Shown: positions 2,483 to 62,633, numbered from the stretch's first letter. The stretch is DNA of 64,000 bases from an uncultured Candidatus Saccharibacteria bacterium (GCA_964599285.1 CAZREI010000002.1:9955-73954), one strand, 5' to 3'. Numbers and translations are program-made. Notes: generated by a model not told the origin, from the letters alone.

Positions 2483-2486
2483 AGTT

Positions 2487-2760: not shown

Positions 2761-2761
2761 G

Positions 2762-3830: not shown

Positions 3831-3833
3831 GAT

Positions 3834-3917
3834 TTCGCTACGAAATACGAATCAAGTACGAATATACCAATAAGATTTAATTCGTATATTCGTAAAAAAT
3901 TCGTATTTCGTAGCCCA
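3834..3917. repeat. family C hairpin repeat (gctacgaaatacgaat ... attcgtatttcgtagc)
   Basis: Copies at 4316-4400, 36007-36090, 36325-36410. Confidence 0.85.
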
Positions 3918-3942
3918 ATTTACTTTTACCTTTATGGCTGCA

Positions 3943-4311: not shown

Positions 4312-4405
4312 AATATTGCTACGAAATACGAATCAATTACGAATATACGAACATAGGCGTCTGATTTGGTATATTCGTAAAAAATTCGTATTTCGTAGCC
4401 AGAAA

Positions 4406-4639
4406 TTAAATCTTACTTATTACGGTAAATTTCTTGTCCCTTGAGATTGGGTTGGTTTCTTCAATGACAACTTTATCGCCAACATGGTATTGCTGGCTTT
4501 CATCGTGGGCTTTGTATTTTTTGTGGACTTTGTATCTTCGTTTGTACTTGGGATGCTCTTTGACTCGTTCCACTTCAACCACCACGGTTTTTTGCATCTT
4601 GTCGGAAACCACAATTCCCGTTAATTTCTTTTTGCTCAT
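4406..4639 (-). CDS. rpsQ: 30S ribosomal protein S17
   Basis: GIVVSDKMQKTVVVEVER pattern. Confidence 0.9.
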   Translation of the reverse strand: MSKKKLTGIVVSDKMQKTVVVEVERVKEHPKYKRRYKVHKKYKAHDESQQYHVGDKVVIEETNPISRDKKFTVISKI

Positions 4640-4721
4640 AGTTTTCAGTTTAATATCCGCAATATCCGTAATATCCGATATCTGATATTATTGATATTTG
4701 CTTTGCGATATTGGTTGATAG

Positions 4722-4910
4722 TTATCGTGTTATTTCTTTTATGATCGTCAAAATGGTAGCGATTTCTTTTTTAGTATTATGAATCTCTTTGACGTTCTTT
4801 AACTGGTTGGCGGAAAATTTAAACCGTAAATCACTTAGCTTTTTGGTAAGCTCATGGGCATTTTTTTGCAATTCGCCAATATCTTTTTTTCTTAGTTCTT
4901 GCGTTTTCAT
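4722..4910 (-). CDS. rpmC: 50S ribosomal protein L29
   Basis: MKTQELRKKDIGELQK... uL29 helical pattern; operon position. Confidence 0.85.
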   Translation of the reverse strand: MKTQELRKKDIGELQKNAHELTKKLSDLRFKFSANQLKNVKEIHNTKKEIATILTIIKEITR

Positions 4911-4911
4911 A

Positions 4912-5015
4912 ATAATGGCAATGCAAATCTACAAATCTTATGCTAATCTACAAAATTGCTAATGTGATATTCGCATATTCGCGGCATTCGCATAAGATTC
5001 GCAGATTTGCATTAC
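4912..5015. repeat. family H repeat (gcaatgcaaatctacaaat ... atttgtagatttgcattgcc)
   Basis: Copy at 34862-34975. Confidence 0.8.
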
Positions 5016-5428
5016 CCTTCTCTCTTAATGAATTTGGTCTTGATAGGCAGTTTGATGCCGGCGCCTTTGAACGCTTCGCGCGCCACCTCTTCTTTCAATC
5101 CGTCAATTTCAAAAATAATCCTTCCTGGTTTTATGGGATACACATAGTGATGCACGCCTCCCTTGCCACCACCCAACGGCACTTCTTCTCCCTTTGAAGT
5201 AACTGGTTTGTCCGGAAAAATTCTCACCCATAGTTTTCCGCCCTTTTTCATGTATCGGATAATGTGCCTTCGCGCCGCTTCCAACTGGCGAGCGGTAATC
5301 CACTTGGTGCCCATGGCTTTTAACCCAAAACTGCCGAAATTCAATTCCGTAGCGCGCGTCTCCACTCCTCGGCTGACACCTCGGTGCCACTTGCGGTGCT
5401 TTACTTTTTTGGGCATTAATAAACTCAT
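5012..5428 (-). CDS. rplP: 50S ribosomal protein L16
   Basis: MPKKVKHRKWHRG...; uL16. Confidence 0.9.
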   Translation of the reverse strand: MSLLMPKKVKHRKWHRGVSRGVETRATELNFGSFGLKAMGTKWITARQLEAARRHIIRYMKKGGKLWVRIFPDKPVTSKGEEVPLGGGKGGVHHYVYPIKPGRIIFEIDGLKEEVAREAFKGAGIKLPIKTKFIKREG

Positions 5429-5429
5429 A

Positions 5430-5540
5430 TTCTTTGATATATATTCGCCTCTGGCGAATGATACTTAGAGATATTTGCGCGCCTTGCGCGCGATATTTTT
5501 CTAGTATCTATTAATATCCGTAATATCCATTAATATCTAT
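5430..5540. repeat. family D repeat (gatatttgcgcgccttgcgcgcgatattt...atatccgtaatatc)
   Basis: Near-identical copy at 17910-18020; partial at 4655-4700. Confidence 0.8.
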
Positions 5541-6214
5541 TTATCAAAACGCTCTCCCTTATAAATCCAAACCTTAATTCCAATGACACCGTACGTGCAG
5601 TGCGCTTCCACCTGGGCGTAATCAATATCAGCTCTGATGGTCTGGCGCGGAAGCCTCCCCTGTTTTAACCATTCTTTGCGGGCAATTTCCACGCCATTTA
5701 ACCTGCCCGACACTTCCATGCGCACGCCTTTGACTTCTTTATTTTGCATCACCCGTTCCAATCCCATTTTCAAAACCTGCCGAAAAGGAATCCTTTTTTC
5801 AATCTGCTGAGCCGCCCATTGTCCGACCAGTTCGGCCACAATCCAAGGGTTTTTCATTTCCTTAATGTCAATTTTGATTTCCCGTTTTTCATGTCCTGCC
5901 CCTGCTTTTCCGGTCGCGAATACCTTGTCATGCAGTTTTTTGACAATCATGTTTTTTAAGGTTTCCGTCCCCTGTCCGCCTCTGCCAATGATAATTCCCG
6001 GCCGCGCTGATTCAATAATAATGTTCAGCTTATTGGCCGAATGCTCTATTTCTATGTTGGCAACCGAAGCTTCTTTTAAGATGTCACGCAGAAAATCTTT
6101 GATCAAAAAATCTTCCTCTAAATACTGGGGCATTTGCTTGCCATAAAAACCGCGGACGTTCCAGTCTTCCAGCCCTTTGATTCTAAATGATTTTGGATGT
6201 ACTTTGTGACCCAC
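5537..6214 (-). CDS. rpsC: 30S ribosomal protein S3
   Basis: GHKVHPKSFRIKG (uS3 N-terminal KH motif). Start proposed at GTG 6214; ORF-track N-terminus MRGIPNSLFRSRYKIRDSRFKN is translation of a repeat. Confidence 0.85.
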   Translation of the reverse strand: MGHKVHPKSFRIKGLEDWNVRGFYGKQMPQYLEEDFLIKDFLRDILKEASVANIEIEHSANKLNIIIESARPGIIIGRGGQGTETLKNMIVKKLHDKVFATGKAGAGHEKREIKIDIKEMKNPWIVAELVGQWAAQQIEKRIPFRQVLKMGLERVMQNKEVKGVRMEVSGRLNGVEIARKEWLKQGRLPRQTIRADIDYAQVEAHCTYGVIGIKVWIYKGERFDK

Positions 6215-40407: not shown

Positions 40408-41484
40408 CTAAAGCCACTGAATTTCTGGTTTCTTTTTCAAGGATTGGGCAGTCGGCGGAGCGGCGTACCCTATCCTAAAACTAAAAGTTGGAATTCTTCC
40501 TGAAGTACTAAAAATTTTCACAATATTTTGATAAGCTTTTTTTATAAACACTACCTGATTTGGTGTAAATTCTTCTGGAGTTTCCTCCTGCATCCTCTGT
40601 CCTATATATAAAAGGCCTGCTGACACTGGTTGGAAACTTAGTCCTAAAGAAGTCACGGTAAGCCAAAATAATTGAAGAATTCTTCCAGTTTCAATAAAGT
40701 CTTTAGGTAAATCACTTTTAGCAACAATTAAACCTATCGCAGAGCAGTTACAATAGAGCTCTTCTCTCTTTTTTGCAGCTTTTACTGATATCTTAAATTT
40801 ATTTAGTATCTTTAAAATATTCCAATTACTAAACAGGTATTTAAATATAATTCGCATTAAAAATGGGAGCTCCTTAGTCCCGACATACAAACCTTCTCGT
40901 TTCTTTTTCTCTTCTTCTACGGTCCAGCTTACTTTTGCAAAAAAAGCTTTATGAATATCAAAGTTTTCAAAAATTAATCTATCCGCCATACTAAACGAAC
41001 CTGAAAGATTGCTTATATCTTCAACATTCTGTTTTAATAAAATCTCTAATCCTGAATTTTTTATTGATTCACAAAATGCTTTTATTGACTTTTCGTCCTC
41101 CTGTTTGAGGGGGATCTTTTTGTAAGGTTTTCTATTTGTAGCACGCTTCAAAATAAAAGGAAAAAGATAATTATAAGGATATTTGATATCACTTTTTTCA
41201 AAACTTATTTCTGCAACTAAATCAACTTCATTTTCTTTTGGAAACAAAGTTAAGTTCCCTCTATACCCTTTTTCTGATGCAGTAATTAAAATATTCTCAA
41301 TTAAGGCTCCGTGAGCAATAAACGATCCTCTTTGTTGATAATTAAATAAGAATTTATCCTTATTAGGAAGATTCCATAGAAAAATTTTATTATCGCTGAC
41401 AACAAATCTCCATGGCTGGGAATTATTTCCAGATGGAGCGTTTACGGCAATATTCAAAATTTCATTAATTATTCCTTTCATCAA
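40408..41484 (-). CDS. tandem nitroreductase-family protein (SagB-like or Acg-like)
   Basis: N-terminal VNAPSGNNSQPWRFVV nitroreductase signature; second nitroreductase-like half. Confidence 0.65.
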   Translation of the reverse strand: MMKGIINEILNIAVNAPSGNNSQPWRFVVSDNKIFLWNLPNKDKFLFNYQQRGSFIAHGALIENILITASEKGYRGNLTLFPKENEVDLVAEISFEKSDIKYPYNYLFPFILKRATNRKPYKKIPLKQEDEKSIKAFCESIKNSGLEILLKQNVEDISNLSGSFSMADRLIFENFDIHKAFFAKVSWTVEEEKKKREGLYVGTKELPFLMRIIFKYLFSNWNILKILNKFKISVKAAKKREELYCNCSAIGLIVAKSDLPKDFIETGRILQLFWLTVTSLGLSFQPVSAGLLYIGQRMQEETPEEFTPNQVVFIKKAYQNIVKIFSTSGRIPTFSFRIGYAAPPTAQSLKKKPEIQWL

Positions 41485-42564
41485 CTATCGTGAAATAAAA
41501 TCATCGAATGTCACCCGACTCCTTCCGCTTTTCACAGGCTCTCCAAGAGCAATCTTTCTGGCAATAAAACACGCAATACCAGAAGCTATGGTTACCGTGC
41601 TCATCAGCTGAGGCCTTCCCACTAAAGTTTTGCCGATCTCTTTTACCGAATCCATCACTTTTGGTGGAATATTCTGGGGCCCTACAATCTGCACTACATA
41701 TTTATTGACTTCTGCTTTAGGAACTTTGCCTTGCAACAAATCATCTAAGATTTTTTCCTCAACCATTCCATTAAATATTTTGGTATCTAGGTCATTGTCA
41801 TAGCGCTCCACATCAATGAGTACAGAGTCTCCAATACTGGTAAGCATGACCACGGGAATTTTTTGTTTTTTAGCTTCTTTCCTAAGTAAAATTTTCAATT
41901 CCAGATCATCAATAATTTCAAATACTAAATTTGTTTTTTGCTTGCCACCTAAAAAATCACCCATAGTTTCTTTGGTAAGACCTTTTTCAAACGGTATTAC
42001 ATTTACATAGGGATCTAACTCATATAACTGCTTGCTGATAATATCTATTTTTGGAGATCCCACGTCAGAAAGCTTTCCCCTCACCCTATTTAAATTGGTT
42101 GTTTCCAGAGTATCAAAATCAGCAATTTTTATATGTTTTGGAAACCCATTATATAAAAGTGTTGTGGCAATATTTCCTCCCACGGAAAGACCGGCAATGG
42201 CAATGGTAAAATTCCGTAACTTTTGTTGCTCTTCCGCAGTAATAATATTTCTATTGCGATTTGTTCGCAATGCGTCATTTTCTTGTTCTGAAAGTGTATG
42301 TAAAAGGACATTGCTCCAGGGATAATAGATCCAATCGCCAAGTAAATCTTGATCTTCTTGAGTTTTTATTTTTTTGAATACTAAGAATTCTTTATTAAAT
42401 TCTTCTTTCCCTGCAATGTGCGCATTTCTTATCTCAAAAAACTCTTTTAGTTGTTGTAAATAAACATCAACTACTTTGGGTTTATATTTATCTTCAAGAT
42501 TAGTAATTTCTTTTTCAGTGTATGCGCCCTCTTTTAAAATAGTGGGGTTTTTTAAATTATCCAT
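41485..42564 (-). CDS. E1-like ThiF/MoeB-family adenylyltransferase
   Basis: IAIAGLSVGGNIAT...IKIADFDTLETTNLNR. Confidence 0.75.
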   Translation of the reverse strand: MDNLKNPTILKEGAYTEKEITNLEDKYKPKVVDVYLQQLKEFFEIRNAHIAGKEEFNKEFLVFKKIKTQEDQDLLGDWIYYPWSNVLLHTLSEQENDALRTNRNRNIITAEEQQKLRNFTIAIAGLSVGGNIATTLLYNGFPKHIKIADFDTLETTNLNRVRGKLSDVGSPKIDIISKQLYELDPYVNVIPFEKGLTKETMGDFLGGKQKTNLVFEIIDDLELKILLRKEAKKQKIPVVMLTSIGDSVLIDVERYDNDLDTKIFNGMVEEKILDDLLQGKVPKAEVNKYVVQIVGPQNIPPKVMDSVKEIGKTLVGRPQLMSTVTIASGIACFIARKIALGEPVKSGRSRVTFDDFISR

Positions 42565-47438: not shown

Positions 47439-48986
47439 TTACTTCTTCACCCACTTCTGTTTGATGCCCAGTTTAAAATGCTTTGGATCTTCGGCTGGCC
47501 AAAATTGTAATCTAGGCAATGCACGGTTACCGATAAATTTATGCAACTCCCGATATTCGGAGTTTTTTAATTCTAACTGTTCAGTGATAGCGTTAACCAT
47601 GGCACGTTTAATGACCTTGGGGATACCATTCTCTCCATAAGGTTTTTTCATCTCCAAATGAATTAAAAGATACTGGTTTTGCTTGCGGTCAAATTGGGTC
47701 TCCAAAGTGAATTTTCCTGTCACATACATGGCCAGCGGTTTTTTGAGCAAGGCCGCCCTGATCGGTTCTGGATAAATTTGCAAGCCATATAACGTAACTG
47801 ACAAGTCGCTGCGTTCAAAAACAAACACAAACGGAAGTTCGTTGGCAACTGTATCTATGCCGGCTTTTTTTTCTTCACGGACAATATCTACGCCATGCTT
47901 TTTGAGCAGGGCAACCATTTGCGAATAAGAATACACTCCCCCATGATCTCCAACATTATAGCGGATTAAGGGAATTTCGTTATTACCCGTTAAAATAATA
48001 TTCCCGTCTACTGACTCAAAATTAATAAATAACGGATTAAATTGAGTTAAGGTGGGTGTCTTATTGATTGATCCGAAGATATCTTTAAATAAGTCTGGCT
48101 TACTGGTGGCTATTCTCCGAATTAAAATACTCAGCGGAGTTTCATAAGCCATAGCACCAATATCCGCAGTTCCGTAAATATTCAACGTATCCAAGTAAAT
48201 ATTTTTAATACGGACACTATCGGCTAAGTAACTTCTGAACTCTTCGGTAAAAGCTTCTGCCGCAAAGAGTAACTTCACATTCATCTTTTTAAAGTCTACG
48301 CTTTGGGAAGCTGACTCATCAACAATATCTTTGATAAACGGCGGGTATCCGACTAAAACGACGGTATGAAAATGAGGCGCCAACTTTTTTAAGGTGTTGA
48401 AAATTTCTTTTTTATTAATGCCCGGGGTAATAATGGATATTGGAGTACCAATACGCTGGGCAGCCATTTCAAATGCTTTATAGGTAATCAAGCCCCCTAT
48501 CCACACTCCCATCCCAAAACAAATAACCACCAAGGTAGGGCCTTGTTTTTTTTGCAAACTATTCTTAAGAAATTCTTCAATCAACAAAGAATACTGCCAA
48601 TCCAGTTCGTTTCCCCTAGGAAAATAAAATGGCTCTCCCGTAGAACCAGATGTTGAAGTAAATACTAATGGTTTTTCCAGATTTCCGTTCCAGCAAACTT
48701 TTTCAAGTGAATATTTACGCAGATAGTCTTTTTTGCTAATAGGCGGAACTTGCACAAAATCGTCCCATGTTTTTATTTCTCCAGGATTAACTCTATTTTT
48801 TTTAAGAAAATCCTGATAAGCGGGAACAAATTCAGCTGCTTTACGGAAAAGTGCCAATGAACGTTTTTTTTGTTCCAATGACCAATCATTTGAATTTCTT
48901 TTTTTTACATCCAAAAGATCCGGGCTATTCTGTTTGATAACTTTAAAAAGAGTAGATGTGGTAAAACTTTTTTGAGATTTCATCAA
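47439..48986 (-). CDS. adenylate-forming enzyme, PaaK-like (F390 synthetase-like)
   Basis: TSTSGSTGEPF. Confidence 0.7.
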   Translation of the reverse strand: MMKSQKSFTTSTLFKVIKQNSPDLLDVKKRNSNDWSLEQKKRSLALFRKAAEFVPAYQDFLKKNRVNPGEIKTWDDFVQVPPISKKDYLRKYSLEKVCWNGNLEKPLVFTSTSGSTGEPFYFPRGNELDWQYSLLIEEFLKNSLQKKQGPTLVVICFGMGVWIGGLITYKAFEMAAQRIGTPISIITPGINKKEIFNTLKKLAPHFHTVVLVGYPPFIKDIVDESASQSVDFKKMNVKLLFAAEAFTEEFRSYLADSVRIKNIYLDTLNIYGTADIGAMAYETPLSILIRRIATSKPDLFKDIFGSINKTPTLTQFNPLFINFESVDGNIILTGNNEIPLIRYNVGDHGGVYSYSQMVALLKKHGVDIVREEKKAGIDTVANELPFVFVFERSDLSVTLYGLQIYPEPIRAALLKKPLAMYVTGKFTLETQFDRKQNQYLLIHLEMKKPYGENGIPKVIKRAMVNAITEQLELKNSEYRELHKFIGNRALPRLQFWPAEDPKHFKLGIKQKWVKK

Positions 48987-52098: not shown

Positions 52099-52575
52099 TT
52101 ACGCGCTTCCGATGAGCATTCCCGCGATGGCGACCAGCACTCCTCCCACCACTACCTGAGCGACCGACCACAAAAAATTCATTTTAAAGTAGCGGGTGCG
52201 GATGTAGGCGATGACCAGAAGTTCGACTCCCACCACTAAGTATGCCACAGAAAGAGCTCGCCACACGTTGGGCAAAAAAAAGGGAACGGTGTGTAAAAAT
52301 CCGCCAATGAAAGTGGCTAGGCCCGTCACTAATCCCCGACGCACGGGGTGTCCCCTACCAGTGTGGACTCCCGTATCGGAAAGCGCTTCGGCAAACCCCA
52401 TACTGATGGCTGCTCCGATGGCCGCTGATAATCCAATCAGCAAGGTAACGTGGGAAGATTTGGTTGCAAAAGCGGCGGCAAACAGCGGGGCCAAGGTTGA
52501 TACCGATCCGTCCATCAGTCCCAGCAAAGCCGGCTGGATATATTGGAGCACAAAAGCTTTTTCTTTTTGATCCAT
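52099..52575 (-). CDS. VIT1/CCC1-family metal transporter
   Basis: LMDGSVSTLAP...GFAEALSDTG. Confidence 0.6.
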   Translation of the reverse strand: MDQKEKAFVLQYIQPALLGLMDGSVSTLAPLFAAAFATKSSHVTLLIGLSAAIGAAISMGFAEALSDTGVHTGRGHPVRRGLVTGLATFIGGFLHTVPFFLPNVWRALSVAYLVVGVELLVIAYIRTRYFKMNFLWSVAQVVVGGVLVAIAGMLIGSA

Positions 52576-52741
52576 TTTACTATTGTAGCATATTCTTTTT
52601 CAATGAAAAAGAAAGCAAAACAAAAATAGCAAAGTGGCGGCGCCCGAAGGCGCCGCCACTTTTTTCACATCCGCGTTAATCCGCGTTTCGCCAGCTGGCG
52701 AATATCCGCGTAAATCCGCGAATTTTACGAAGTAAAATTGA

Positions 52742-52993
52742 TTAGCAGCACTTGCACATCCCTGCCTTATTGGCCCACTTCATAAAACCTCCAATGATAA
52801 CCAAAATTGGCCAAACAATTGCCGAAAATCCGGCGGTCACAACGCCCAAAGCTTGCAACAAAAAGGTCAAACCAAACAAAATGATCAGCACCGGTACTAC
52901 TTTATGATGAGGGCACTTGCACATATTTTTCATTCCCCCACCCATATTTTGCATATTTTCCATATTTTTTAAATGATAAATGATAATTAACAA
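52742..52993 (-). CDS. small Cys-rich membrane protein
   Basis: CKCPHH...CKCC flanking two TM. Confidence 0.35.
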   Translation of the reverse strand: MLIIIYHLKNMENMQNMGGGMKNMCKCPHHKVVPVLIILFGLTFLLQALGVVTAGFSAIVWPILVIIGGFMKWANKAGMCKCC

Positions 52994-53031
52994 TCTATTA
53001 ATTATCGACCTTTACCTGATCATACCATAGA

Positions 53032-53463
53032 TTAAGACCAAAGTGCCAGCACTGATCCCATAATCAGCAAGGCAAGCAAGTAATACGCGTTCATCAAAAA
53101 CCAAAGTTTCCACGATTTTCCTTCCCAAAGCACCGACCCCAGCGTCACCGGAGCAATAAATCCCAGCCAACTCCAAAACCCCACCATCAGGCCTGCGCCA
53201 ATGCCCGCCGCCTGCAAATAAGCACTGGCAAACACCAAGCTGTGCGCCAACACATATCCCATGACCAGCGACCCGATAAAGGCCAGCAAATATCCTTTCC
53301 ACATGCCGCCCTTGGCTTTGGCAGCGTCCATGTGTTCTTTGGTCATGCCCATCAGCGACATCCAAAGTTTGCCAAATAAGGGCCCGTACCAAACAAAACC
53401 CAGCACCATATTGGCCAGAGCCGCCACCAAAATGGCCCAGTAATTTACGACAACTTGCACCAT
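53032..53463 (-). CDS. DUF1761 membrane protein
   Basis: YGPLFGKLW pattern. Confidence 0.55.
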   Translation of the reverse strand: MVQVVVNYWAILVAALANMVLGFVWYGPLFGKLWMSLMGMTKEHMDAAKAKGGMWKGYLLAFIGSLVMGYVLAHSLVFASAYLQAAGIGAGLMVGFWSWLGFIAPVTLGSVLWEGKSWKLWFLMNAYYLLALLIMGSVLALWS

Positions 53464-53583
53464 ATTTTTAAAAATTCCAAATTACAAGCACCAAATTACA
53501 ATAGCGAATTGGAATTGGGATGCTGCAGTTTGAAAGATTTATATTTTTTCATTATACCACGCTAATCTTGACATGCCTATTGC

Positions 53584-53612
53584 AAGCATTGAAAAAATGG
53601 CTTACTATAAAA
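53584..53612 (+). promoter_or_regulatory. promoter TTGCAA-17-TACTAT upstream of tRNA
   Basis: Spacing consensus. Confidence 0.3.
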
Positions 53613-53646
53613 CTGCGAATAAGGGAAATGGTTCATTAAAAATACA

Positions 53647-54010
53647 TTCCGGTGTAGCTCAGCGGTAGAGCGATTCCCTGTCAACAAGGCAGCGCTCAGA
53701 AGAAACTCTGAGATGAACTTTTCGGGATATCGGTGAACCCTTCGACATTAATTGTCATGGCGATACCGAGGGAACCTAAATAATTTATTTGGGGCTCCGT
53801 AGAGACTAGATACCGAAATGCCTAATGTAGTTATTAGTTAGAAGTTTAAAGTTATAGTTATTAGTTCTTGGTTTAAAACTGAAAACTAAAAAACTTAAAC
53901 TTGGAACTTAAAACCAAAAACTGCCACGGCAAAGATATAGTCCACGCCTTGTGGAAACACAAGAATAAAGTGTAAGGAATGGGTCGTAGGTTCGAATCCT
54001 ACCACCGGAG
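53647..54010 (+). tRNA. tRNA (probably Asn-GUU) split by an about 292-nt group I intron in the anticodon loop
   Basis: 5' half tccggtg-ta-gctcagcggtagagc-g-attcc-ctgt. 3' half taa-ggaat-gggtc-gtagg-ttcgaat-cctac-caccgga-g. Intron has R-like gtagagactaga and exact S element aagatatagtcc, ends in G after exon U, and GCAG can pair CUGU for P1. Confidence 0.65.
53815..53925. repeat. family O repeat copy lodged inside the tRNA intron
   Basis: agttattagtt...aaactgaaaactaaaaaacttaaactt, similar to 38520-38660 and 51050-51180. Confidence 0.6.
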
Positions 54011-54011
54011 C
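53997..54011 (+). repeat. 15-bp direct repeat (tRNA 3' end), left copy
   Basis: tcctaccaccggagc; identical at 58681-58695. Confidence 0.7.
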
Positions 54012-54055
54012 AAGACAGGATTTGCTTCGTACAAATCCTCAATTTTAATTTCATT

Positions 54056-54484
54056 TTGTGCTGTTTTGAGATGAACTTTATGTCGTTGTTGAACTCAAAA
54101 AATATCGTTGCTTTAGGAATCATTGCTTTTTTAGTAGTGAGCATTTGGAGTTTATCTACCATGTGCATAATGGACATGAGCGGCCATATGGTAAATTGCC
54201 CATTCATGAACGGCTCATCAGGTTTTTGCCAGATGACCCTAACCGAGCATATCAGCCTTTGGCAGCAAACCTTTTCTTTGATAAAAATAAAAGATTTGTT
54301 TTTATTGTCTTTGCTGGTTTTTCTTTTTTCTGTTTTAGGTGCTGCGATCAGAAAAACCTACTACCAGTTAGAATCTCAGCCGTTTCGTCACTATTTTTAT
54401 AGGTATCGACCGGAAATAAAATTATTTAACCATCTGGAGCTGGCTTTTTCAGACGGCCTCATCCACTCAAAAATCTACGCTTAA
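54056..54484 (+). CDS. Cys/Met/His-rich membrane protein
   Basis: MSGHMVNCPFMNGSSGFCQM; start uncertain. Confidence 0.4.
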   Translation: MCCFEMNFMSLLNSKNIVALGIIAFLVVSIWSLSTMCIMDMSGHMVNCPFMNGSSGFCQMTLTEHISLWQQTFSLIKIKDLFLLSLLVFLFSVLGAAIRKTYYQLESQPFRHYFYRYRPEIKLFNHLELAFSDGLIHSKIYA

Positions 54485-54612
54485 TATTCGAAGCTGCCTT
54501 TTGTTTTTGTCAGCTCTCTTTACATACTAACTTTCATTGCGAAAGATTATTGTAAAAGAGAGCTGTAAGGCAGTTTTTTGTTAAACGTTTTCAGGGTAAA
54601 GTTAATCAAAAC

Positions 54613-55656
54613 ATGAATAAGGAACAGACCTATTTTATCAAAGGCATGCATTGCTCGGCCTGCGAAATACTCATCGAAAAAAAGCTCCTGGCAATTCCCG
54701 GGGTGAAATCCGTTGATGCTTCCCTATCCAAGGGAGAAGCGATAATTGAATACGATGGAGAAAAGCCGACAACTGAAACGCTCAACGACATGTTCAGGAA
54801 AGACAATTACACTTTTTCTGAAGATCGGCAGTTAGTAAGTAGCCAAGTTCAAGAGAAAAGCAAAGAATCAATAAATCCAACGCTGCTTGGATTGGCAATA
54901 GCCATGGTCATTGTGACAGGATTTTTGGTGCTGGATCGTCTGGGAATATCGGGGTTGCTCAATATCAGCTCAAAATCTTCGGCCATCACTTTTTTTGGTT
55001 TTGGAATCATAGCCGGCTTGTCCTCCTGTGCCGCGTTGGTAGGAGGTATCGTGCTATCTATGTCAAAGCAATGGCTCCAAATGTATAACTCCCAGCAAAG
55101 CAAAATAAAAAAACTCGAGCCGCACTTACTGTTTAATGTTGGCAGGGTTCTATCTTACGCCGTACTGGGCGGAGCGCTGGGATTGATTGGGGGCAGGCTG
55201 CAAATATCGGTAGGGCTTACTACTACATTGGTCATTGTCATTTCTGTCCTCATGATAGGGTTGGGATTGCAAATGCTCGAAGTAAAAGGGTTTCGGAGAT
55301 TTCAATTTTCAATGCCAAGATTCATTACCCGAGGCATTGCCAACGAAAATAATTTTAAGGGAAAGTATATGCCGTTTGTTATGGGGGCCGCCACCTTTTT
55401 TCTGCCTTGCGGTTTTACCATCACCGCTCAAACGATAGCATTGTTATCGGGAAACGCGTTGCAGGGAGGTTTGATTATGGGGTTTTTTGCCTTGGGAACT
55501 TTGCCCATGCTTTTGCTTATTGGATTATCAAGCGTTGCCTTTTCTTCAAAGCCTCGCTTAGCATTAATCTTCTCAAAAGTTGCCGGGTTCTTGGTGTTGT
55601 TCTTTGCCTTGTATAATATTTACCATCAATTAATACTATTAGGATTAATCAAATAA
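54613..55656 (+). CDS. HMA domain fused to CcdA/DsbD-like membrane domain
   Basis: GMHCSACE metal-binding motif; Cys in TM helices. Confidence 0.6.
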   Translation: MNKEQTYFIKGMHCSACEILIEKKLLAIPGVKSVDASLSKGEAIIEYDGEKPTTETLNDMFRKDNYTFSEDRQLVSSQVQEKSKESINPTLLGLAIAMVIVTGFLVLDRLGISGLLNISSKSSAITFFGFGIIAGLSSCAALVGGIVLSMSKQWLQMYNSQQSKIKKLEPHLLFNVGRVLSYAVLGGALGLIGGRLQISVGLTTTLVIVISVLMIGLGLQMLEVKGFRRFQFSMPRFITRGIANENNFKGKYMPFVMGAATFFLPCGFTITAQTIALLSGNALQGGLIMGFFALGTLPMLLLIGLSSVAFSSKPRLALIFSKVAGFLVLFFALYNIYHQLILLGLIK

Positions 55657-55661
55657 AAATT

Positions 55662-56078
55662 ATGCAAAAAAATAACCTCATTCAGCCGATATTAATTTCA
55701 GTGATCCTGATTTGCGTACTCATTTCAGGATATATTCTTGTAACTTCAAACAAGCAAACTGCAAGCCAGGGCGCGAGCGCCTTGGCACCCATGGTCAATG
55801 GCAAGCAGCTAATCCAAATGACGGTAAATGCGGTAAAATATAATCCCAATTCATTTACCGTAAAAGCCGGCATTCCGGTAAGCTGGCAAATTACTTCATC
55901 GGGCGAACCGGGATGCGATAGCGGAGAGGTAATCGCGCGCGGTTTAACTGATCCGATTTTTTTAAATCCCAATCAGGGGCAAGTTACTATCAAAGAATTC
56001 ACTGCGCAAACTCCAGGCACTTATCAGTTCGGTTGCCCGATGGGTATGGTACTTGGCACCATTGAAGTAGTAAATTAA
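55662..56078 (+). CDS. cupredoxin-like protein
   Basis: GTYQFGCPMGMVLG C-terminal ligand loop. Confidence 0.5.
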   Translation: MQKNNLIQPILISVILICVLISGYILVTSNKQTASQGASALAPMVNGKQLIQMTVNAVKYNPNSFTVKAGIPVSWQITSSGEPGCDSGEVIARGLTDPIFLNPNQGQVTIKEFTAQTPGTYQFGCPMGMVLGTIEVVN

Positions 56079-56090
56079 CATCAAAAATCC

Positions 56091-58394
56091 ATGACTCATA
56101 AAACATATCAAATTAAGGGAATGCATTGCGCTTCTTGCGCGAGCATCATTGAGATGGCTTTTAAGGAAACGGAAGGAGTCGCCTCCGCGCAAGTCAACTA
56201 CGGCACGGAAACCGCCAAAGTTTCTTTTGATCAATCAAAAACAAGTGTGGAAGCGCTTTCAAAGAAAATAGAACCTTATGGCTATTCCATTATCATGCCA
56301 ACGGCGGAAGAAATGGGCATGTCTACTGATGAACACGCCGCTCACACCGGCATCGGGCAATCAAAAAAAGAAAAACTAAAGGAAATTGCGGAGCAAAAAA
56401 CCATGGTCATGTCGGCCATTCCGCTGGCCATTGTCAGTATTTTTGCTATGACTTGGGAAACGCTGGCTCAATTCAATTTAGTGGCGCAGCAGCCGTTTGC
56501 CGTGGCAGAATTTTTTAGTCACCTACTACCGATTATGGCTACCTACGTTTTGTTTGTGGTGGGAAAGCCGTATTTACTCGGCATGTATCGGTTCCTGCGC
56601 TATGGCAAAGCCAATATGGATACATTGATTGGGCTCGGTACTTCAGTCGCTTTCCTGTACAGCTTTATTGTTACTGCGTTCACCAATTCAATGGCTCATA
56701 CTTATTACGATGTCACCATTGTGGTTATTACGTTCATTGCTCTGGGCAAATATCTTGAAGCCCGGGCTAAACTAAAAACAGGAGATGCTATTGAAAAGCT
56801 GCTGAACCTTCAAGCAAAAACGGCCTTAGTGATCCGGGACAGTAAAGAGCAAAAAGTTTCTATTAATGATGTGGTGCATGGGGATTTATTAATAGTAAAA
56901 CCGGGAGGAAGAATTCCCGTTGACGGAACTATTACCCAGGGAACTTCTTTTGTTGACCAAGCCATGATCACCGGCGAGCCCATGCTCGTTGAGAAAAAAT
57001 TGGGAGACCAAGTGGTTGCCGGCACCATCAATACCACTGGCAGCTTCACATTCAAAGCCACAAAAGTTGGGTCTGAAACGTTGCTATCTCATATTGTGAA
57101 AATGGTTCAGGAGGCACAGGGAAGCAAAGCTCCCATCCAGGCCTTGGCCGATAAAATCTCGGGCGTATTTGTGCCGGTAGTACTGGTGATTTCTTTTATT
57201 ACGCTTGGAATATGGCTTACGATTGGAACTCATTACCTAGGTTTTGCTGAAGCATTATCCTTCGGCCTAACTTCGTTTGTGGGAATCTTAGTCATCGCCT
57301 GTCCATGTGCTTTGGGATTGGCAACACCGACGGCAATTATTGTCGGCGTAGGCAAAGGAGCCAAAGAAGGCATTCTCATTAAAGATGCGGCAACGCTGGA
57401 AAAACTTCACAAGGTAAATACCGTGGTTATGGATAAAACCGGGACGATCACCAAAGGAAAAACAGAGCTTACGGACATTAAGAATTATTCCTTCCTTCGC
57501 CAAGGCTTCGGCGGGCAGGCAAAACTGGATGATAAAAAAGTAATATCCATCCTGGCTTCGCTCGAAAAAAATTCAGAGCATCCGATCGCCTCCGCAATCA
57601 CTAACTACGCAAAAGAAAAATCCATTGAAACAATAACGGTAGAAAAATTCGAAATCATCAAAGGCAAGGGGCTCAAAGGAATTGTTGATGGCAAGGAATA
57701 CTTCGCCGGAAATGCAAAACTTATCTTTGATCTAAAAATTCCTTTTGATGCCAAAAGCATTGAAACGGAAACCCGACAAGGGAAAACGCCGGTGATTCTT
57801 GCAACCCAAAAAGAGATCATCGGCGTCGTAATGATTGCTGACGCCATAAAACCAGAAGCAATCGATGCTGTAAAAAATCTGCACAAGATGGGCATTAAAA
57901 TCGTGATGCTTACCGGCGATGATAAAAATACCGCACAGGCAATTGCTAAAGAAGTTGGCATCGATAAAGTGATCTCGGAGGTGTTACCTGAAGATAAACT
58001 CAAAACTATCAAGGAGCTGCAGCAGAAAGGCGCGGTGATTGCCATGGCAGGTGACGGAGTAAATGATGCTCCGGCGCTAGCACAAGCTGACGTCGGCATT
58101 GCCATGGGGACAGGCACAGATGTTGCTATTGAAACCGCTGGCATTACACTTTTGCACGGCGATATTTCAAAGCTGGTCAAAGCGGTGCGCCTTTCAAAAA
58201 TGACGATGCTTGGCATCAAGCAAAATCTCTTCTGGGCGTTTATTTATAACATAGCAGGAATCCCGATCGCCGCCGGCATCTTATATCCATTCTTTGGAAT
58301 ATTGCTTTCACCGGTGTTTGCGGGATTGGCCATGGCATTTTCAAGCGTAAGCGTGGTTGGAAATAGTTTGAGGATTAGAGGGAAGAAATTGTAG
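56091..58394 (+). CDS. copA: Cu+-exporting P1B-type ATPase
   Basis: GMHCASCA, CPC, DKTGT, GDGVNDAP. Confidence 0.95.
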   Translation: MTHKTYQIKGMHCASCASIIEMAFKETEGVASAQVNYGTETAKVSFDQSKTSVEALSKKIEPYGYSIIMPTAEEMGMSTDEHAAHTGIGQSKKEKLKEIAEQKTMVMSAIPLAIVSIFAMTWETLAQFNLVAQQPFAVAEFFSHLLPIMATYVLFVVGKPYLLGMYRFLRYGKANMDTLIGLGTSVAFLYSFIVTAFTNSMAHTYYDVTIVVITFIALGKYLEARAKLKTGDAIEKLLNLQAKTALVIRDSKEQKVSINDVVHGDLLIVKPGGRIPVDGTITQGTSFVDQAMITGEPMLVEKKLGDQVVAGTINTTGSFTFKATKVGSETLLSHIVKMVQEAQGSKAPIQALADKISGVFVPVVLVISFITLGIWLTIGTHYLGFAEALSFGLTSFVGILVIACPCALGLATPTAIIVGVGKGAKEGILIKDAATLEKLHKVNTVVMDKTGTITKGKTELTDIKNYSFLRQGFGGQAKLDDKKVISILASLEKNSEHPIASAITNYAKEKSIETITVEKFEIIKGKGLKGIVDGKEYFAGNAKLIFDLKIPFDAKSIETETRQGKTPVILATQKEIIGVVMIADAIKPEAIDAVKNLHKMGIKIVMLTGDDKNTAQAIAKEVGIDKVISEVLPEDKLKTIKELQQKGAVIAMAGDGVNDAPALAQADVGIAMGTGTDVAIETAGITLLHGDISKLVKAVRLSKMTMLGIKQNLFWAFIYNIAGIPIAAGILYPFFGILLSPVFAGLAMAFSSVSVVGNSLRIRGKKL

Positions 58395-58695: not shown

Positions 58696-59060
58696 CATCG
58701 TATACGAATAGAGGCGAGAGCCTCTGTTTTGTTCGTAAAATCGCCTGTTTTTGCCAGTTCTAACCTTAAATACTCTGCTTGTAGGGCAGGATAGCCTTCG
58801 CCGATAGGTTGTAGCCACTCTTTTGGCTCAATAGTTAGATTTTTGTTCTTAATTATGGGCTTTTCTCCCAAGCTCATTAAGATTTCTTTCTTCAATTCTA
58901 ACCCTCTTTCTAAAAACTTGATTCTGGCGTAGGCGGCAAAGTGAAAAGTTTTTTCATTTATCTCAAACCAATGCTCGACTCGGGCTTCGGTTTCTTTTAC
59001 CAGATTTTTTAGCTTGTTTATTTTTGCCGCTAGTAAACCTATATTAAAAGTAAAATAAAG
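58683..59060 (-). pseudogene. C-terminal gene remnant without start codon
   Basis: About 120-codon frame opening directly after a stop; first Met only 70 codons from end. Confidence 0.3.
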
Positions 59061-59107
59061 CCCCCAATCAGTTTCCGTAGAAACCGACTAGGGGCATGTT
59101 GAAAGAA

Positions 59108-59518
59108 CTACCTGATGCTTGAGTTGCTCACGCTACTCAAACTGCTCTCCTCACGAACGTTGTTGATAGCACCGTTGCTATGAACATCGTGAGGCGTGTC
59201 GTTGACTGATCGAAACGGTGTCAGTTTGATGACCACGCCGCTTACGATTGCGGCGATGGCCACGATCACGAACACCGAGACGAAAAGGTCAATGACAACC
59301 CACTGCGAAACAACCACGGGCTGGTAAATCACGACGAGCGTGATCGCCACCCAGTGGCTGGTGCAGTAAGAGCATGACACAAGCTCACCGAGCCAGGTGT
59401 TTTTCTTGGCACTCCATTCCCTTGCGGAAGCGAAGAGCCGAGATTTGGAGGTGGTCACCGAAATCGCCGCTGTCGCCAGAGCGAGAACGATAACCTGATA
59501 CAAGCCGTTCAGATCCAT
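59108..59518 (-). CDS. DUF1360-like membrane protein
   Basis: SCSYCTSHWVA; AAAGGAGG SD; high GC. Confidence 0.5.
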   Translation of the reverse strand: MDLNGLYQVIVLALATAAISVTTSKSRLFASAREWSAKKNTWLGELVSCSYCTSHWVAITLVVIYQPVVVSQWVVIDLFVSVFVIVAIAAIVSGVVIKLTPFRSVNDTPHDVHSNGAINNVREESSLSSVSNSSIR

Positions 59519-59533
59519 TGCGCTACCTCCTTT

Positions 59534-59737
59534 CTAGCAGGTACATCCGCCCTGGGACTTGGACTGTTCGCGACGCATTTGTTCGTTGATGCTGTCGGCC
59601 AGCTTCAGGGCTTTGTCCACCCCGGCCAACACATCGTCAACCTCCGGAACCTGGTCGGAAATGTCAGTCGTCTCAAGAGACGAACTGCCACCTGGACCCG
59701 GCCCTTTGGTTTTCTTGCGGAACCGATCTTGGAGCAT
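59534..59737 (-). CDS. Pup-like small protein ending ...QGGCTC
   Basis: Gly-rich N-terminus; EVDDVLAGVD...KSQGG resembles Pup DEIDDVLEEN...QKGGQ; AAGGAGA SD; directly after ARC stop. Confidence 0.5.
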   Translation of the reverse strand: MLQDRFRKKTKGPGPGGSSSLETTDISDQVPEVDDVLAGVDKALKLADSINEQMRREQSKSQGGCTC

Positions 59738-59749
59738 GGATGTTTCTCC

Positions 59750-61487
59750 TTACGCCTTGGCCTGGCGAAGCTTCTGAATGCCCACGACTTCCTCGCGGAA
59801 ATCATGGACGAAATCAGAGAGTTCGTCGGTGTGGTTGAGGTCACGGTTTTGTTGTTCCACCAGATCCACTGCCACCACCAGATCGTCCTTGCGCATCCCT
59901 TCCGGCTTTTTCTTGGAAAGGTCGCGTTGCAGAGCAATCGAAGTGGCTTGGTCGATGATACTCACGATCATCCCACCGTTCACGATGTGACCGAGGGTGA
60001 AATCGCAGACACCATCTTTCTTCTTGACTTGGTAGAGCACCCGACGAGACGAGAACACCTCGTCACTGCCGAGCTTTGCCAGCTCCTCGCGCGTGTAACC
60101 GTTGTTAAGCGGCACTCGCTTGAGGTTGAGCTGGAAAATGTCCACCGCGCCTTGCGGAGTCGGACGCCCAATCTTGATCTTGCGATCAATGCGCCCGTCA
60201 CGAACCACAGCCGGGTCGAGGATGTCGGAGCGGTTCGTGGCCAGAATGACCAGAGCGCCCGAATCTTCGAGACCGTCCATTTCCGTCAGGAACATGGGAA
60301 CGATCGTGCGTTCCACATCCGAGCTGATGCCCGAACCGCGCTTGGACAAGATCGCGTCGGCTTCGTCGATGAACACCACCGCCGGATAGCCATGCGTTTC
60401 CTTGTGCTTGCGCGCCCGCTGGAAGATTTGACGAACCGTTGCTTCGGCCATACCCACGAAACGATCGAGAATCTCGGGACCCTTGATGTAGATGAATCCC
60501 GCAGACTTCGAGCCGCCGTTGTAGATCTTGGCCAGAGCTGTCGCCGTCGCCTTTCCCAGCATGGTCTTGCCGCATCCCGGAGGGCCATAGAGGAGAATTC
60601 CCTTTACTGGCTTCTTGCCGTAGAACCGGAAAATATCCGGGTTCCTGTGTGGAAGCTCCACGGCTTCGATCATCTGTTTCTTGGCTTCCGCCAAACCACC
60701 GACATCGTTCCAAGTGACGTTCGTTTCAGCCGAAAAGCTGAAGCGTTCGTCGTCTTTCCCGAGGTTGCGGATGATGACGCTGGCCGTTCCGTCAAGCACG
60801 ACGCGGTCGCCCTTTTCGAGCGCCTTGCCGAGCTTGCCGTTGAAAACGACCCGAACCGAAGACTGGTAGTCCACTTCCGAGAACATTTCGTCGATCACGC
60901 GTCGCAGGTAGCCGATGTCACCGCCCAGTTGCGTTGCCGCAACGTCGACGATTTGCATCGTCTCCATAACGATCGTGACCGTGTCGCCAGGGTTGACCTG
61001 TTTGTCCTTCGGCAGAAGGACTTCGAGGAACTTCCCTTCGACGGCGATGAGGGCAGTGTTGCCATAACTAGCAGATGCCTTCTTAGTGTACCATCGTTCG
61101 ACATCTGCACAAAAATCGAGAAACACCTTTCCGTCGTGATCAGTGAAAATCTTGGAGCCCTGAAAACCCGCCACCACATGCTTCTTGGCCTTCATGACAT
61201 GGGAGGTAAGACCCACATCGGGTTTAATCTCAAGCTCATCACCCACAGCGTAACCCCGCAACGTCCTGACGATATTATCCACTTTTTCAGTGCTGCCGTT
61301 CACCATAACAATGGACGAAGGGATTTTTACCTCCCTCTTCACTTCCACCGCCACCACCGTCGCATACGCGAAGGGGGGGGGTAGTGAGCTGTTCGAGCAT
61401 CTCCTTCTGTTCGAGGAGCTTGGCTTTCGCCTGCTCGAGAGCGTCACGGAGCTTCTGGACCTGTTCTTGGACTTCACGTTCGTTCAT
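59750..61487 (-). CDS. proteasome-associated AAA ATPase (ARC/Mpa-like), frameshifted in a C9 run
   Basis: GILLYGPPGCGKT...FIDEADA...ILATNR...RxGRID; N-terminal coiled coil MNEREVQEQVQKLRDALEQAK encoded in the other frame upstream of G9/C9 at 61373-61381. Confidence 0.85.
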
Positions 61488-61774
61488 GACTGACCTCCTG
61501 ACCTGACGTTCGCGGTTTGATCTTCAACGGGATTTTGCAGGCATACGTCAACTGCTCGCAAAACTTTCGCCCCCGCTGGATCGTCAATCGTTCCGATGGC
61601 AAAGTGAACATTCAGTCCCCTTGCCAACTCCAGTCCTCCCCGGACCGAAGCTACGATTAGTTTTTGTCCGTCATGGGAACTGGTCGGATCCTTCACGCGC
61701 ACCTTCCAGACTGTTCGTCCTTTCGATGGCGTGTCGAACCCGACGACGAACCCATTGGTTCTTTTCGGGTTCAT
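61484..61774 (-). CDS. hypothetical protein (96 aa)
   Basis: ATGA overlap with ARC start; no family recognised. Confidence 0.4.
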   Translation of the reverse strand: MNPKRTNGFVVGFDTPSKGRTVWKVRVKDPTSSHDGQKLIVASVRGGLELARGLNVHFAIGTIDDPAGAKVLRAVDVCLQNPVEDQTANVRSGGQS

Positions 61775-61894
61775 GACTGGTTCCTTTCTGAACTAGTGAC
61801 CGATTTACCAAAAGACCGTCAGACCGTTTGACACCTCCTTTTAGTTTTCAAAGACCATTCCTAATGATCTCCAAGGCACATACCTTGAGATACC

Positions 61895-61925
61895 CCATCT
61901 TATCACATTGACAGTTTTATGTCAA
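61895..61925 (-). promoter_or_regulatory. promoter TTGACA-17-TAAGAT with palindromic operator ttgacaNNNNNNNtgtcaa
   Basis: On the reverse complement upstream of 61774; palindrome cattgacagttttatgtcaatag. Confidence 0.4.
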
Positions 61926-61930
61926 TAGTT

Positions 61931-61966
61931 TGTAGTAAAATAAAATCCCCTAGCGCTTTGTTTGCA
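61931..61966 (-). terminator. intrinsic terminator after 62003-62437 gene
   Basis: cccctag...ctagggg stem plus T-run on minus strand. Confidence 0.5.
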
Positions 61967-62002
61967 CTAGGGGATACTGTTGCCGACGGCGGTGCCGATG
62001 GC

Positions 62003-62437
62003 CTACGAAAAGATGTGCTCGACCAGTTCGGAGAGCGCCTTCTTGGCCTTGACCCACGGGTCGATGAGGACGACCTGCCAGTCCTTGCGGAGACCGACGT
62101 CGTCGCTGCCGACTTTGGGGAACTCGAGGCGGACGCAGGTCCAGAATGCCTTGTGAATGAGGTCTTCCTCGAGATGAACGGTCGCGTGCTCGCGGATGAT
62201 CTCCTTCTTTTTCTCCTCGGTGATCTTGTCGCCGAGTTCGGGAATCTCCTTCTGTAGCCGGGTGTGCAAAGCCTTCGTTTTCTCCTCGGCGCCCACCATC
62301 ACGACGTAGAGCTTCTTGAGATCGTCGGAAAGAATGCCCACGACTTCTTCGCCTTCCTCTACTCCGTAATCCGGAGACTTCATTCCCTTGAGAGAGACCT
62401 CGGATACCATTCCCATGACCTTCTTGAGAAACAACAT
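62003..62437 (-). CDS. hypothetical protein (144 aa), high GC
   Basis: GGAGG SD; consensus TTGACA-17-TATAAT promoter upstream on minus strand (about 62515-62545). Confidence 0.5.
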   Translation of the reverse strand: MLFLKKVMGMVSEVSLKGMKSPDYGVEEGEEVVGILSDDLKKLYVVMVGAEEKTKALHTRLQKEIPELGDKITEEKKKEIIREHATVHLEEDLIHKAFWTCVRLEFPKVGSDDVGLRKDWQVVLIDPWVKAKKALSELVEHIFS

Positions 62438-62603
62438 GGCAAACCTCCAATGTGTTACTCGAAAACCCTACACCGTGCAGGATTTCAGGGGTAACGAATT
62501 GACGAAATGTTCTGAAAATCATTATATTACAATAGGGTTCTATTGTCAATGGTTTTGGTTTTCTTTGATTAAATTTTAGATTTCCTTGGCTGGTCTGGTA
62601 GGT

Positions 62604-62633
62604 TGACACAGATTTTTATTTTGCTATAATTCC
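62604..62633 (+). promoter_or_regulatory. promoter TTGACA-16-TATAAT facing an ORF-less 400-nt region
   Basis: ttgacacagatttttattttgctataat. Confidence 0.4.

Follow-up and report, generated by a model that had tools for sequence, protein, structure and literature searches.

The operon and its small gene

The window considered in this work, i.e., the whole stretch of 64,000 nucleotides that was analysed, derives from an uncultured Candidatus Saccharibacteria bacterium (GCA_964599285.1 CAZREI010000002.1:9955-73954) and harbors a four-gene operon on the minus strand. The products are, in the order of transcription, a 96-residue protein (p96), an AAA+ ATPase resembling Mpa/ARC, a small protein, and a membrane protein of the DUF1360 family (Table 1); the last three genes are hereafter referred to as the cassette, and other loci and contigs are cited by number (L001, L002, etc.). 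The small protein, on which we focus here, had been described as a homolog of Pup with three residues after the di-glycine. According to our data, it belongs to a family that ends in a conserved pair of cysteines (C-x-C) and possesses a central helix resembling the Mpa-binding part of Pup.

The open reading frame (ORF), its SQGG-CTC ending, and a Shine-Dalgarno sequence for the next gene directly behind it, all reported in the original prediction, were confirmed in the sequence; the AAGGAGG motif is separated by 7 nt from the ATG of the DUF1360 gene (position 59518). An AlphaFold2 (AF2) model computed on the family alignment predicts that residues 1-30 of the 67, which comprise a Gly-rich stretch, are devoid of structure and that residues 33-62 form a single helix, with a predicted local distance difference test (pLDDT) score of 86-93 in its core. 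Logan contigs L006 and L007, probably from the same samples as the window, are 100% identical to it at the small gene. ORFs overlapping the gene in antisense (e.g., 59579..61384, plus strand) look like by-products, since the GC content is high.

The order ATPase, small protein, DUF1360 was found in every locus with enough flank (L001-L005, L008, L009, L011-L018, L020, and L021), including members sharing only about 30-40% identity with the window protein, and the spacing between the genes ranges from overlapping codons to about 27 nt. The small ORF is a real gene and not a chance ORF, because its homologs are many and the synteny is constant wherever a contig reaches far enough. The ATPase gene of the same island does contain a homopolymer frameshift, which might speak for an artefact, that is, a spurious ORF or a tail made by a sequencing error; however, 71 conserved relatives with the same terminus and the same synteny, together with the identical sequence in two Logan assemblies, leave practically no room for it. 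A sequencing error as the origin of the tail, which the original prediction had contemplated, is excluded, C65 being invariant and C67 being retained in at least 90% of the family.

Table 1. Features of the operon and of related loci; positions refer to the window unless another locus is named.
Feature	Position	Strand	Remarks
Small Pup-like gene	59534..59737	minus	ATG-started ORF, 67 aa: MLQDRFRKKTKGPGPGGSSSLETTDISDQVPEVDDVLAGVDKALKLADSINEQMRREQSKSQGGCTC
Residues 30-46 of the small protein (VPEVDDVLAGVDKALKL)	59600..59650	minus	Segment aligning with Pup residues 33-49 in the Mpa-binding helix
G63-G64 of the small protein	59546-59551	minus	Codon positions
C65-T66-C67, conserved C-x-C terminus	59537..59545	minus	C65 invariant, C67 at least 90% in the family; 65/71 relatives
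TAG stop of the small gene	59534-59536	minus	Read in the sequence
Shine-Dalgarno AAGGAGG of the DUF1360 gene	59526..59532	minus	Read directly in the sequence
Mpa/ARC-like AAA+ ATPase (coiled coil, OB, AAA, C-terminal domain)	59750..61487	minus	Split by a frameshift into 61287..61487 and 59750..61477
C9 homopolymer (G9 on the plus strand)	61373..61381	minus	+1 frameshift in the ATPase gene
DUF1360 membrane protein, 136 aa, three predicted transmembrane helices	59108..59518	minus	Pfam PF07098, E 1.2e-7, 32.1 bits (cut-off 21 bits)
C49-S-Y-C52 of DUF1360, predicted cytoplasmic entry of the second transmembrane helix	59363..59374	minus	C-[SP]-Y-C invariant in cassette copies
DUF1360 with ATPase-like tail	L012 7228-7640; L013 8184-8582; L016 7887-8360; L019 216-629		
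Plasmid DUF1360 homolog	L023 5444-6348		Klebsiella quasipneumoniae plasmid NZ_CP133224.1; also about 20 other enterobacterial plasmids
p96, 96-aa OB-fold-like beta-barrel protein	61484..61774	minus	Stop overlaps the ATPase start (ATGA)
Sigma-70-like promoter of the four-gene operon	61897..61925	minus	Near-consensus: TTGACA, 17 nt spacer, TAAGAT, TG extension
Terminator of the gene upstream of the operon	61945-61975		Operon promoter comes after it
Intrinsic-terminator-like hairpin and T-run ending the operon	59060..59095	minus	
144-aa protein inside the GC-rich island	62003..62437	minus	Own promoter and terminator; no family match

The family of small proteins and its C-terminal end

A word-indexed search of 5.8 billion proteins retrieved nine close homologs of 62-65 residues, and about 64 further small relatives emerged when 1.84 billion cluster representatives were scanned exhaustively with HMMER. 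The C-terminal ends were counted over 71 small proteins (56-87 residues). A C-x-C motif lies within the last eight residues of 65 of them and represents the exact end of the protein in 43; a CC variant (including ...CCGVRRWVED) occurs in four, and in two the C-x-C is located slightly further inward. The residue ahead of the first cysteine is usually R, G, or S, and no other cysteine is present in 69 of the 71. This conservation is not an effect of the profile, because about 24 matches whose alignment to the hidden Markov model stops short of the C-terminus still finish in C-x-C or CC.

The glycines, on the other hand, are not conserved: GG precedes the first cysteine in only four of the 71 proteins, and none ends in GG[QE]. 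In the alignment of the nine close homologs, the GG is peculiar to the window protein, where it sits in a five-residue linker insertion; the invariant C-terminal residues are the two cysteines, C65 and C67 (C-T-C or C-G-C), and the N-terminus and the helix are conserved more than the region preceding them. The parsing of the tail as a di-glycine plus three residues was therefore a misreading of a Cys-x-Cys terminus. Some tails contain four or five clustered cysteines (GCCFCGCD, LCTCCC, and GCCGCGC) and resemble metal-thiolate sites, while several members carry a CGCGG tail, with glycines beside the cysteines. In L019 (4-889), two small paralogs flank a single DUF1360 gene; one ends in CGCGG and the other, of 87 residues, has a longer tail with six cysteines.

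If the protein were a precursor of the ubiquitin type, as had been suggested, a protease would remove CTC and the exposed GG would be conjugated to targets. The window protein does read ...GG-CTC, and in L008 a JAB-like protein, an E1/ThiF protein, and a ubiquitin-like protein (Ubl) are encoded just upstream of the cassette. However, L008 has its own Ubl, the small protein is modelled as a helix plus disorder and not as a beta-grasp fold, and neither Pfam nor PADLOC revealed a protease, a ligase, or a deubiquitinase in the cassettes of L001, L002, L013, L014, L016, and L020. In the annotated flanks of the same six loci, no PafA/Dop (Pup_ligase), 20S subunit, JAMM, or other protease was found within 6-10 kb, nor was any Pup_ligase, 20S subunit, or protease encoded by the ten largest other ORFs of the window; the processing protease or Dop-like depupylase that the original prediction had in mind was thus missing from both. 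Since the GG is unconserved and the conserved end is C-x-C, the idea of a processed precursor appears largely refuted by the family alignment, and we regard it as very improbable.

Two further readings of the tail were considered and discarded, namely a double-glycine leader of a ribosomally synthesized and post-translationally modified peptide (no maturase or exporter is linked and the GG is unconserved) and an intein- or hedgehog-like cleavage before the cysteine (the preceding residue is variable). Scanning the small protein against Pfam, PHROGs, and PADLOC gave no match, no relative was retrieved from the IMG/VR viral contigs, and the use of a 23-sequence alignment as query yielded three metagenome loci and no viral contig. 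In the literature on DUF1360, on Pup in Candidate Phyla Radiation (CPR) bacteria, on UBact, and on proteasome ATPases in CPR bacteria, we found no description of the family, no Pup-like protein ending in cysteines, and no Mpa-type ATPase operon in CPR bacteria. The small proteins represent an undescribed family, covered by no curated one.

Similarity to Pup

The recognition of Pup by Mpa is known in detail. The Pup helix spans residues 21-51, and it is the disordered N-terminus of Pup, with five glycines, that is threaded into the pore (PMC8755798).

None of the 10 close members of the small-protein family matched any Pfam entry, even at E-values of up to 10. With NCBIfam TIGR03687 (Pup), sub-threshold matches were obtained for 11 of the 66 aligned members, while every other family was matched by one member only; the best of them reaches an E-value of 0.0021 (about 17 bits against a cut-off of 41.45 bits), and the L001 ortholog (E 0.0049) aligns its residues 32-46 with profile positions 4-18. 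A Pup alignment was then built from database sequences annotated as PF05639 and compared by hhalign with the 66-member family, resulting in a probability of 83.7% (E 8e-6) over 17 columns, in which VPEIDDVLAEIDxALxk faces TEETDDLLDEIDDVLEE (Pup residues 33-49); with the narrower 23-member alignment, the probability was only 26%. An hhalign run of the narrow profile against a single Pup sequence (12%, Gly-rich N-termini aligned only) is superseded by these broader alignments. Among 177,635 PDB sequences, the top match of the broad profile was the Pup chain 3m91_B, a fragment crystallised with the Mpa coiled coil, at an E-value of only 0.23, and four of its 25 matches were Pup sequences; the narrow profile of the nine close homologs returned only TAL-effector repeat noise.

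The hydrophobic positions of the helix (V33, V36/L37, V40, A43/L44, A47, I50, and M54) follow a 3-4 heptad spacing, whose register, as read from the alignment, matches that of Pup L39/L40, I43, and V46/L47. Like Pup, the small protein has a length of about 60-70 residues, a Gly-rich N-terminal segment predicted to be intrinsically disordered, a single predicted acidic amphipathic helix with the pattern ExDDxLxx[IV]DxxL, and a gene position beside an Mpa/ARC-type ATPase. Unlike Pup (PF05639/TIGR03687, from Actinobacteria), which ends in GG[QE], the small protein ends in C-x-C; furthermore, its N-terminus is strongly conserved and basic (MLQDRFRKKTKRP), its named sources are almost all CPR lineages, its loci have no linked genes for PafA, Dop, or the 20S particle, and its obligate neighbor is a membrane protein.

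The label "Pup-like" is therefore weakly supported: a recurrent weak signal is confined to the Mpa-binding helix, and an Mpa/ARC-type ATPase is encoded directly upstream, but no match rises above threshold. The profile-profile comparison that had been proposed as a check gave a similarly divided answer, favorable with the broad alignment and not with the narrower one. Judged from its sequence, the small protein is not a member of the Pup family as presently defined; it probably functions as does the Mpa-binding part of Pup, to which it may bear a distant relationship.

UBact, a Pup-like tag known from several Gram-negative phyla, has Gln or Glu as its last residue, and PafA/Dop-like ligases and a proteasome are encoded in linkage with it. 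By its general traits, the small protein resembles UBact in being a short, disordered analog of Pup outside Actinobacteria, and differs from it in ending in Cys and in having no PafA/Dop-like or proteasome neighbors. Cysteine swinging arms at a C-terminus are known from SoxY (GGCGG), Erv2 (C-G-C), and CCS (C-X-C); in these, a flexible tail bearing one or two cysteines, sometimes beside glycine, shuttles sulfur, disulfides, or metal to a CxxC partner, and the tail of the small protein is comparable in form. Such arms have no relation in sequence or fold to the small protein and belong to folded redox or carrier proteins.

The Mpa/ARC-like ATPase

The window ATPase matches Pfam AAA with an E-value of 1e-34. 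Its intact ortholog in L001 (583 residues) aligns through residues 8-560 with positions 12-490 of the 512 of NCBIfam TIGR03689 (pup_AAA; E 4e-97), although its 326.1 bits do not reach the equivalog cut-off of 504.75 bits. The full-length match implies the presence of the coiled-coil helix, the OB region, the AAA module, and the C-terminal domain. Mpa chains are the only full-length relatives in the PDB; Cdc48/VCP chains outscore them only because they possess two AAA modules.

In Mpa, the pore loop is K340-F341-V342-G343, and the C-terminal GQYL, with its penultimate tyrosine, represents the 20S docking motif (PMC8755798). The cassette ATPase shares the Ar-Hb-Gly pore loop (RFVG), whereas GQYL was found in none of the ATPase C-termini, which read ...LRQAKA, RQASA, RQATA, RQTVE, HQGYN, or GVRQ; this implies that the ATPase does not dock canonically on the 20S particle. 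Thus, the cassette ATPase is like Mpa/ARC in its full-length profile match and its pore loop, and differs from it in its C-terminus (...LRQA[KS]A) and in being preceded by a free-standing OB-fold protein. Weak PADLOC matches to the defence ATPases IetA and TRIP13 were also recorded.

In the window, a frameshift divides the gene into a 66-residue coiled-coil ORF (MNEREVQEQVQKLRDALEQAKAKLLEQKEMLEQLTTPP...) and a 575-residue ORF. The reading LT[ST/A/N]PPFAYATVVA, present at this site in most intact relatives, would call for eight C instead of nine. The Logan assembly L006 (run SRR8931234), probably from the same sample as the window, shows the same C9. CCC-C sites are prone to +1 shifts, and the C9 could reflect a genuine pseudogene, a switch based on slippage, or a homopolymer error common to both assemblies.

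The DUF1360 membrane protein

The product of the downstream gene is a genuine DUF1360 protein (PF07098) and has the family motif C-x-Y-C-x-S-H-W. In all the cassette copies, the second hydrophobic segment starts with C-[SP]-Y-C-x-[SG]-[HF]-[WY]. According to the positive-inside rule, the C-terminal tail and the K/R-rich loop ahead of C-x-Y-C are likely to be cytoplasmic, and if so both cysteines would face the compartment holding the small protein.

Unlike other DUF1360 proteins, some cassette members have, at the end of this tail, a close copy of the coiled-coil helix found at the ATPase N-terminus. It was found in L012, L013, and L016 (and, more weakly, in L019); for example, ERVEQLFTALETARAKIIEQQRIIQKL in a DUF1360 tail corresponds to EQLENLNAALELAREKLSEQDTLLRQL in the ATPase. 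When the tails from L012, L013, and L016 were compared with the ATPases, using 500 composition-preserving shuffles, 11 out of 12 comparisons gave z-scores of 4-13, with at most 1/500 shuffles reaching the score; the exception was the L016 tail against the L013 ATPase (z 1.5, 53/500 shuffles). The copying of the ATPase helix argues that DUF1360 contacts the same helical partners as the ATPase.

A DUF1360 homolog with the motif C-F-Y-C-F-S-H-W (46% identity, E 1e-11) is also present on Klebsiella and Providencia plasmids, where neither the ATPase nor a small CxC protein occurs nearby and where the gene is divergent to an adjacent Rrf2-family regulator. The Rrf2 family includes Fe-S and redox sensors, and this neighborhood hints at a redox or metal role for DUF1360 generally. 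GenBank phages yielded no DUF1360 match at an E-value of 1e-3 and only partial AAA matches.

p96 and the genomic context of the cassette

The p96 protein has 79 homologous clusters, the source names of which are mostly CPR (Kerfeldbacteria and Staskawiczbacteria), with one metagenome-assembled genome (MAG) labelled Verrucomicrobiae. The AF2 model predicts a five-stranded beta-barrel (mean pLDDT 85), and Foldseek gave only weak OB-fold matches (SSB, PriB, S12, and cold-shock proteins; E-values of 6e-3 or above). In many loci (L001, L009, L012, L013, and others), a protein of this type (79-127 residues) precedes the ATPase and overlaps its start. The RSGGQS end of p96 (61484-61504), shared by many homologs, was considered as a second Pup-like terminus and rejected, because it is the in-frame reading of the ATPase Shine-Dalgarno sequence (GGAGG) and of the ATGA overlap, and is absent where there is no overlap. 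The 144-residue protein of the island has a homolog directly upstream of the ATPase in L008 and no equivalent in L013 or L016; whether it belongs to the system is uncertain.

The operon is part of a GC-rich island (approximately 59100-62450), where the GC content is 0.50-0.61; the flanks have values of 0.22-0.40 and the whole window has about 0.41. The cassette DNA is 74-79% identical to that of loci including Candidatus Saccharibacteria (L008) and Candidatus Parcubacteria (L009) MAGs. In L001 and L004 it adjoins serine recombinases, in L016 its context is phage-like (a run of many small co-oriented ORFs), and in L013 it sits among chromosomal housekeeping genes (S16, TrmD, and RNase R). A search for attachment (att) sites revealed no convincing direct repeats flanking the island, and no tRNA or Rfam element was found in the window. 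The window operon is a horizontally acquired island, a mobile operon of ultra-small (CPR) bacteria.

Other features of the surroundings were noted. Logan contigs from the same samples as the window are interrupted at 58590 and 61861. The island edge bears two sigma-70 promoters arranged back to back, each a perfect 12/12 match to the consensus (TTGACA, 16-17 nt spacer, TATAAT), at 62521-62549 (minus) and 62603-62630 (plus). Beside the island, a metal-homeostasis cluster (52099-58394) comprises a VIT1 family protein, DUF1761, an HMA-DsbD fusion, and a cupredoxin-like protein; its 767-residue ORF (56091-58394) resembles, by eye only, a P-type ATPase (HMA-like MHCASCA N-terminus, CPC, and DKTGT). 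The nearness of metal genes to a Cys-tailed protein is probably coincidental, because it is not conserved at other cassette loci. Directly upstream of the L008 cassette (2296-5678), an unknown 445-residue protein, a JAB/MPN-like protein (motif HLHPGDMTEPSGQD), and an E1/ThiF protein are followed by a 105-residue Ubl-like protein (weak Ub-Mut7C match) and a zinc-ribbon protein, a run that resembles a bacterial ubiquitination-like (Bil-type) operon and was seen at this one locus only. Farther away in the window, a nitroreductase-family gene (358 residues) adjoins a ThiF-family gene (359 residues) at 40408-42564 (GC 0.33-0.35), reminiscent of thiazole/oxazole-modified microcin (TOMM)-like peptide-modification loci, and a 515-residue ORF without a Pfam match at an E-value of 1e-5 occupies 47439-48986.

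Proposed mechanism and alternative explanations

We propose that the central amphipathic helix, with the motif (E/Q)(V/I)DD(V/I)LxE(V/I)DxAL, would dock on the N-terminal coiled coil of the ATPase, as Pup does on Mpa, and that the disordered, Gly-rich, and basic N-terminal segment of about 30 residues would enter the ATPase pore. The C-terminal thiol pair might link the small protein without a ligase, either through a shared metal ion or by thiol-disulfide exchange, the best candidate partner being the putatively cytoplasm-facing C-x-Y-C of the co-translated DUF1360. The unfoldase would thereby be coupled to a membrane protein, and the thiol pair would supply the attachment for which GGQ/PafA chemistry is responsible in Actinobacteria. 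That the small protein binds the unfoldase through a Pup-type helix and that the Cys pair is its functional end appears rather probable to us. The whole model, i.e., a ligase-independent, Pup-like recruiter of an Mpa-type unfoldase whose thiol-pair terminus is probably paired with the DUF1360 cysteines, is advanced more tentatively, with slightly less than even confidence. The non-conjugating tag envisaged in the original prediction is compatible with this evidence, provided that its functional end is placed at the cysteines and not at the glycines.

Several observations weigh against the proposed model. The similarity to Pup covers only 17 columns and stays below threshold in every curated model, the window protein itself has no TIGR03687 match, and an acidic amphipathic helix could be convergent. 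The frameshift in the window ATPase gene may have left this copy inactive, and the window DUF1360 lacks the coiled-coil tail. Moreover, C-x-Y-C is a general feature of DUF1360: its occurrence in the plasmid homologs, which have no cassette, indicates that it is intrinsic to these proteins and did not evolve specifically for pairing with C-x-C. Finally, among the cassette copies, we saw no covariation of the middle residue of C-x-C with the second residue of C-x-Y-C.

Some of these points would fit a small protein with no relation to Pup, whose acidic helix is convergent and which is, for instance, the precursor of a small Cys peptide or metallophore, the ATPase being unrelated; all the Pup signals lie below curated thresholds, and hhalign weakens with the narrower alignment. 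However, Pup is the only recurrent match and the top one in three independent libraries or methods, and the ATPase encoded next to the small protein is of the single type known to recognize Pup. Linked genes for a maturation enzyme or an exporter are absent, and conservation is higher in the N-terminus and the helix than in the region before the cysteines, opposite to the pattern of a leader-and-core peptide; we thus consider this explanation quite improbable. The small protein might also regulate the ATPase, or be its substrate, while sensing redox state or metal. Its cysteines would then act alone, forming a disulfide switch or a Cu, Zn, or Fe-S ligand, possibly between two copies, and would not contact DUF1360, itself a separate client or an anchor. 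The use of CxC tails as shuttle or ligand arms in the proteins named above, the clustered cysteines of some members, the Rrf2-family regulator divergent to the Klebsiella plasmid homolog, and the metal-homeostasis genes adjoining the island all agree with such a sensor, but the metal-gene neighborhood is not kept in other loci, and the DUF1360 gene, strictly adjacent and coupled in translation, speaks for a product that is a physical partner of the small protein, so that we judge such a sensor unlikely.

A mobile module for defence, abortive infection, or addiction is compatible with the same physical contacts as our model: DUF1360 would be a membrane-damaging effector, the small protein would restrain it, and the ATPase would remove or unfold the small protein upon a trigger. 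The GC-rich island shared at the DNA level between Saccharibacteria and Parcubacteria MAGs, the adjacent recombinases and phage-like context of some loci, the JAB/E1/Ubl operon adjoining the L008 cassette, and the weak ATPase matches to IetA and TRIP13 point in this direction. On the other side, PADLOC gave no match for the cassette proteins beyond those two, searches of IMG/VR contigs for relatives of the small protein and of GenBank phages for DUF1360 were negative, the L013 context is a housekeeping one, and the toxicity of DUF1360 is a supposition; a role of this kind therefore has a small chance of being correct. A comparably small one is given to a ligase-free, thiol-based analog of pupylation, in which the small protein would be reversibly attached, by a disulfide or a bridging metal, to DUF1360 or other Cys-bearing proteins and would deliver them to the Mpa-like unfoldase in bacteria without a linked proteasome, the redox or metal state acting as the "ligase".

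Implications

Outside the canonical system, UBact is, to our knowledge, the main Pup-like tag described, and it, too, has a terminal Gln or Glu and retains a PafA-type ligase. In the family described here, the recognition logic of Pup and Mpa would occur with another terminus, another partner, and no linked ligase. If the proposed model is true, a Pup-type recognition module, consisting of a disordered threader and a coiled-coil-binding helix, would exist outside the ligase/proteasome context, combined with a different attachment chemistry based on a conserved C-terminal thiol pair. An Mpa-type unfoldase would also be wired to a membrane protein, DUF1360 would gain a first functional handle, and a mobile module for protein remodelling would be added to what little is understood of CPR/Patescibacteria cell biology.

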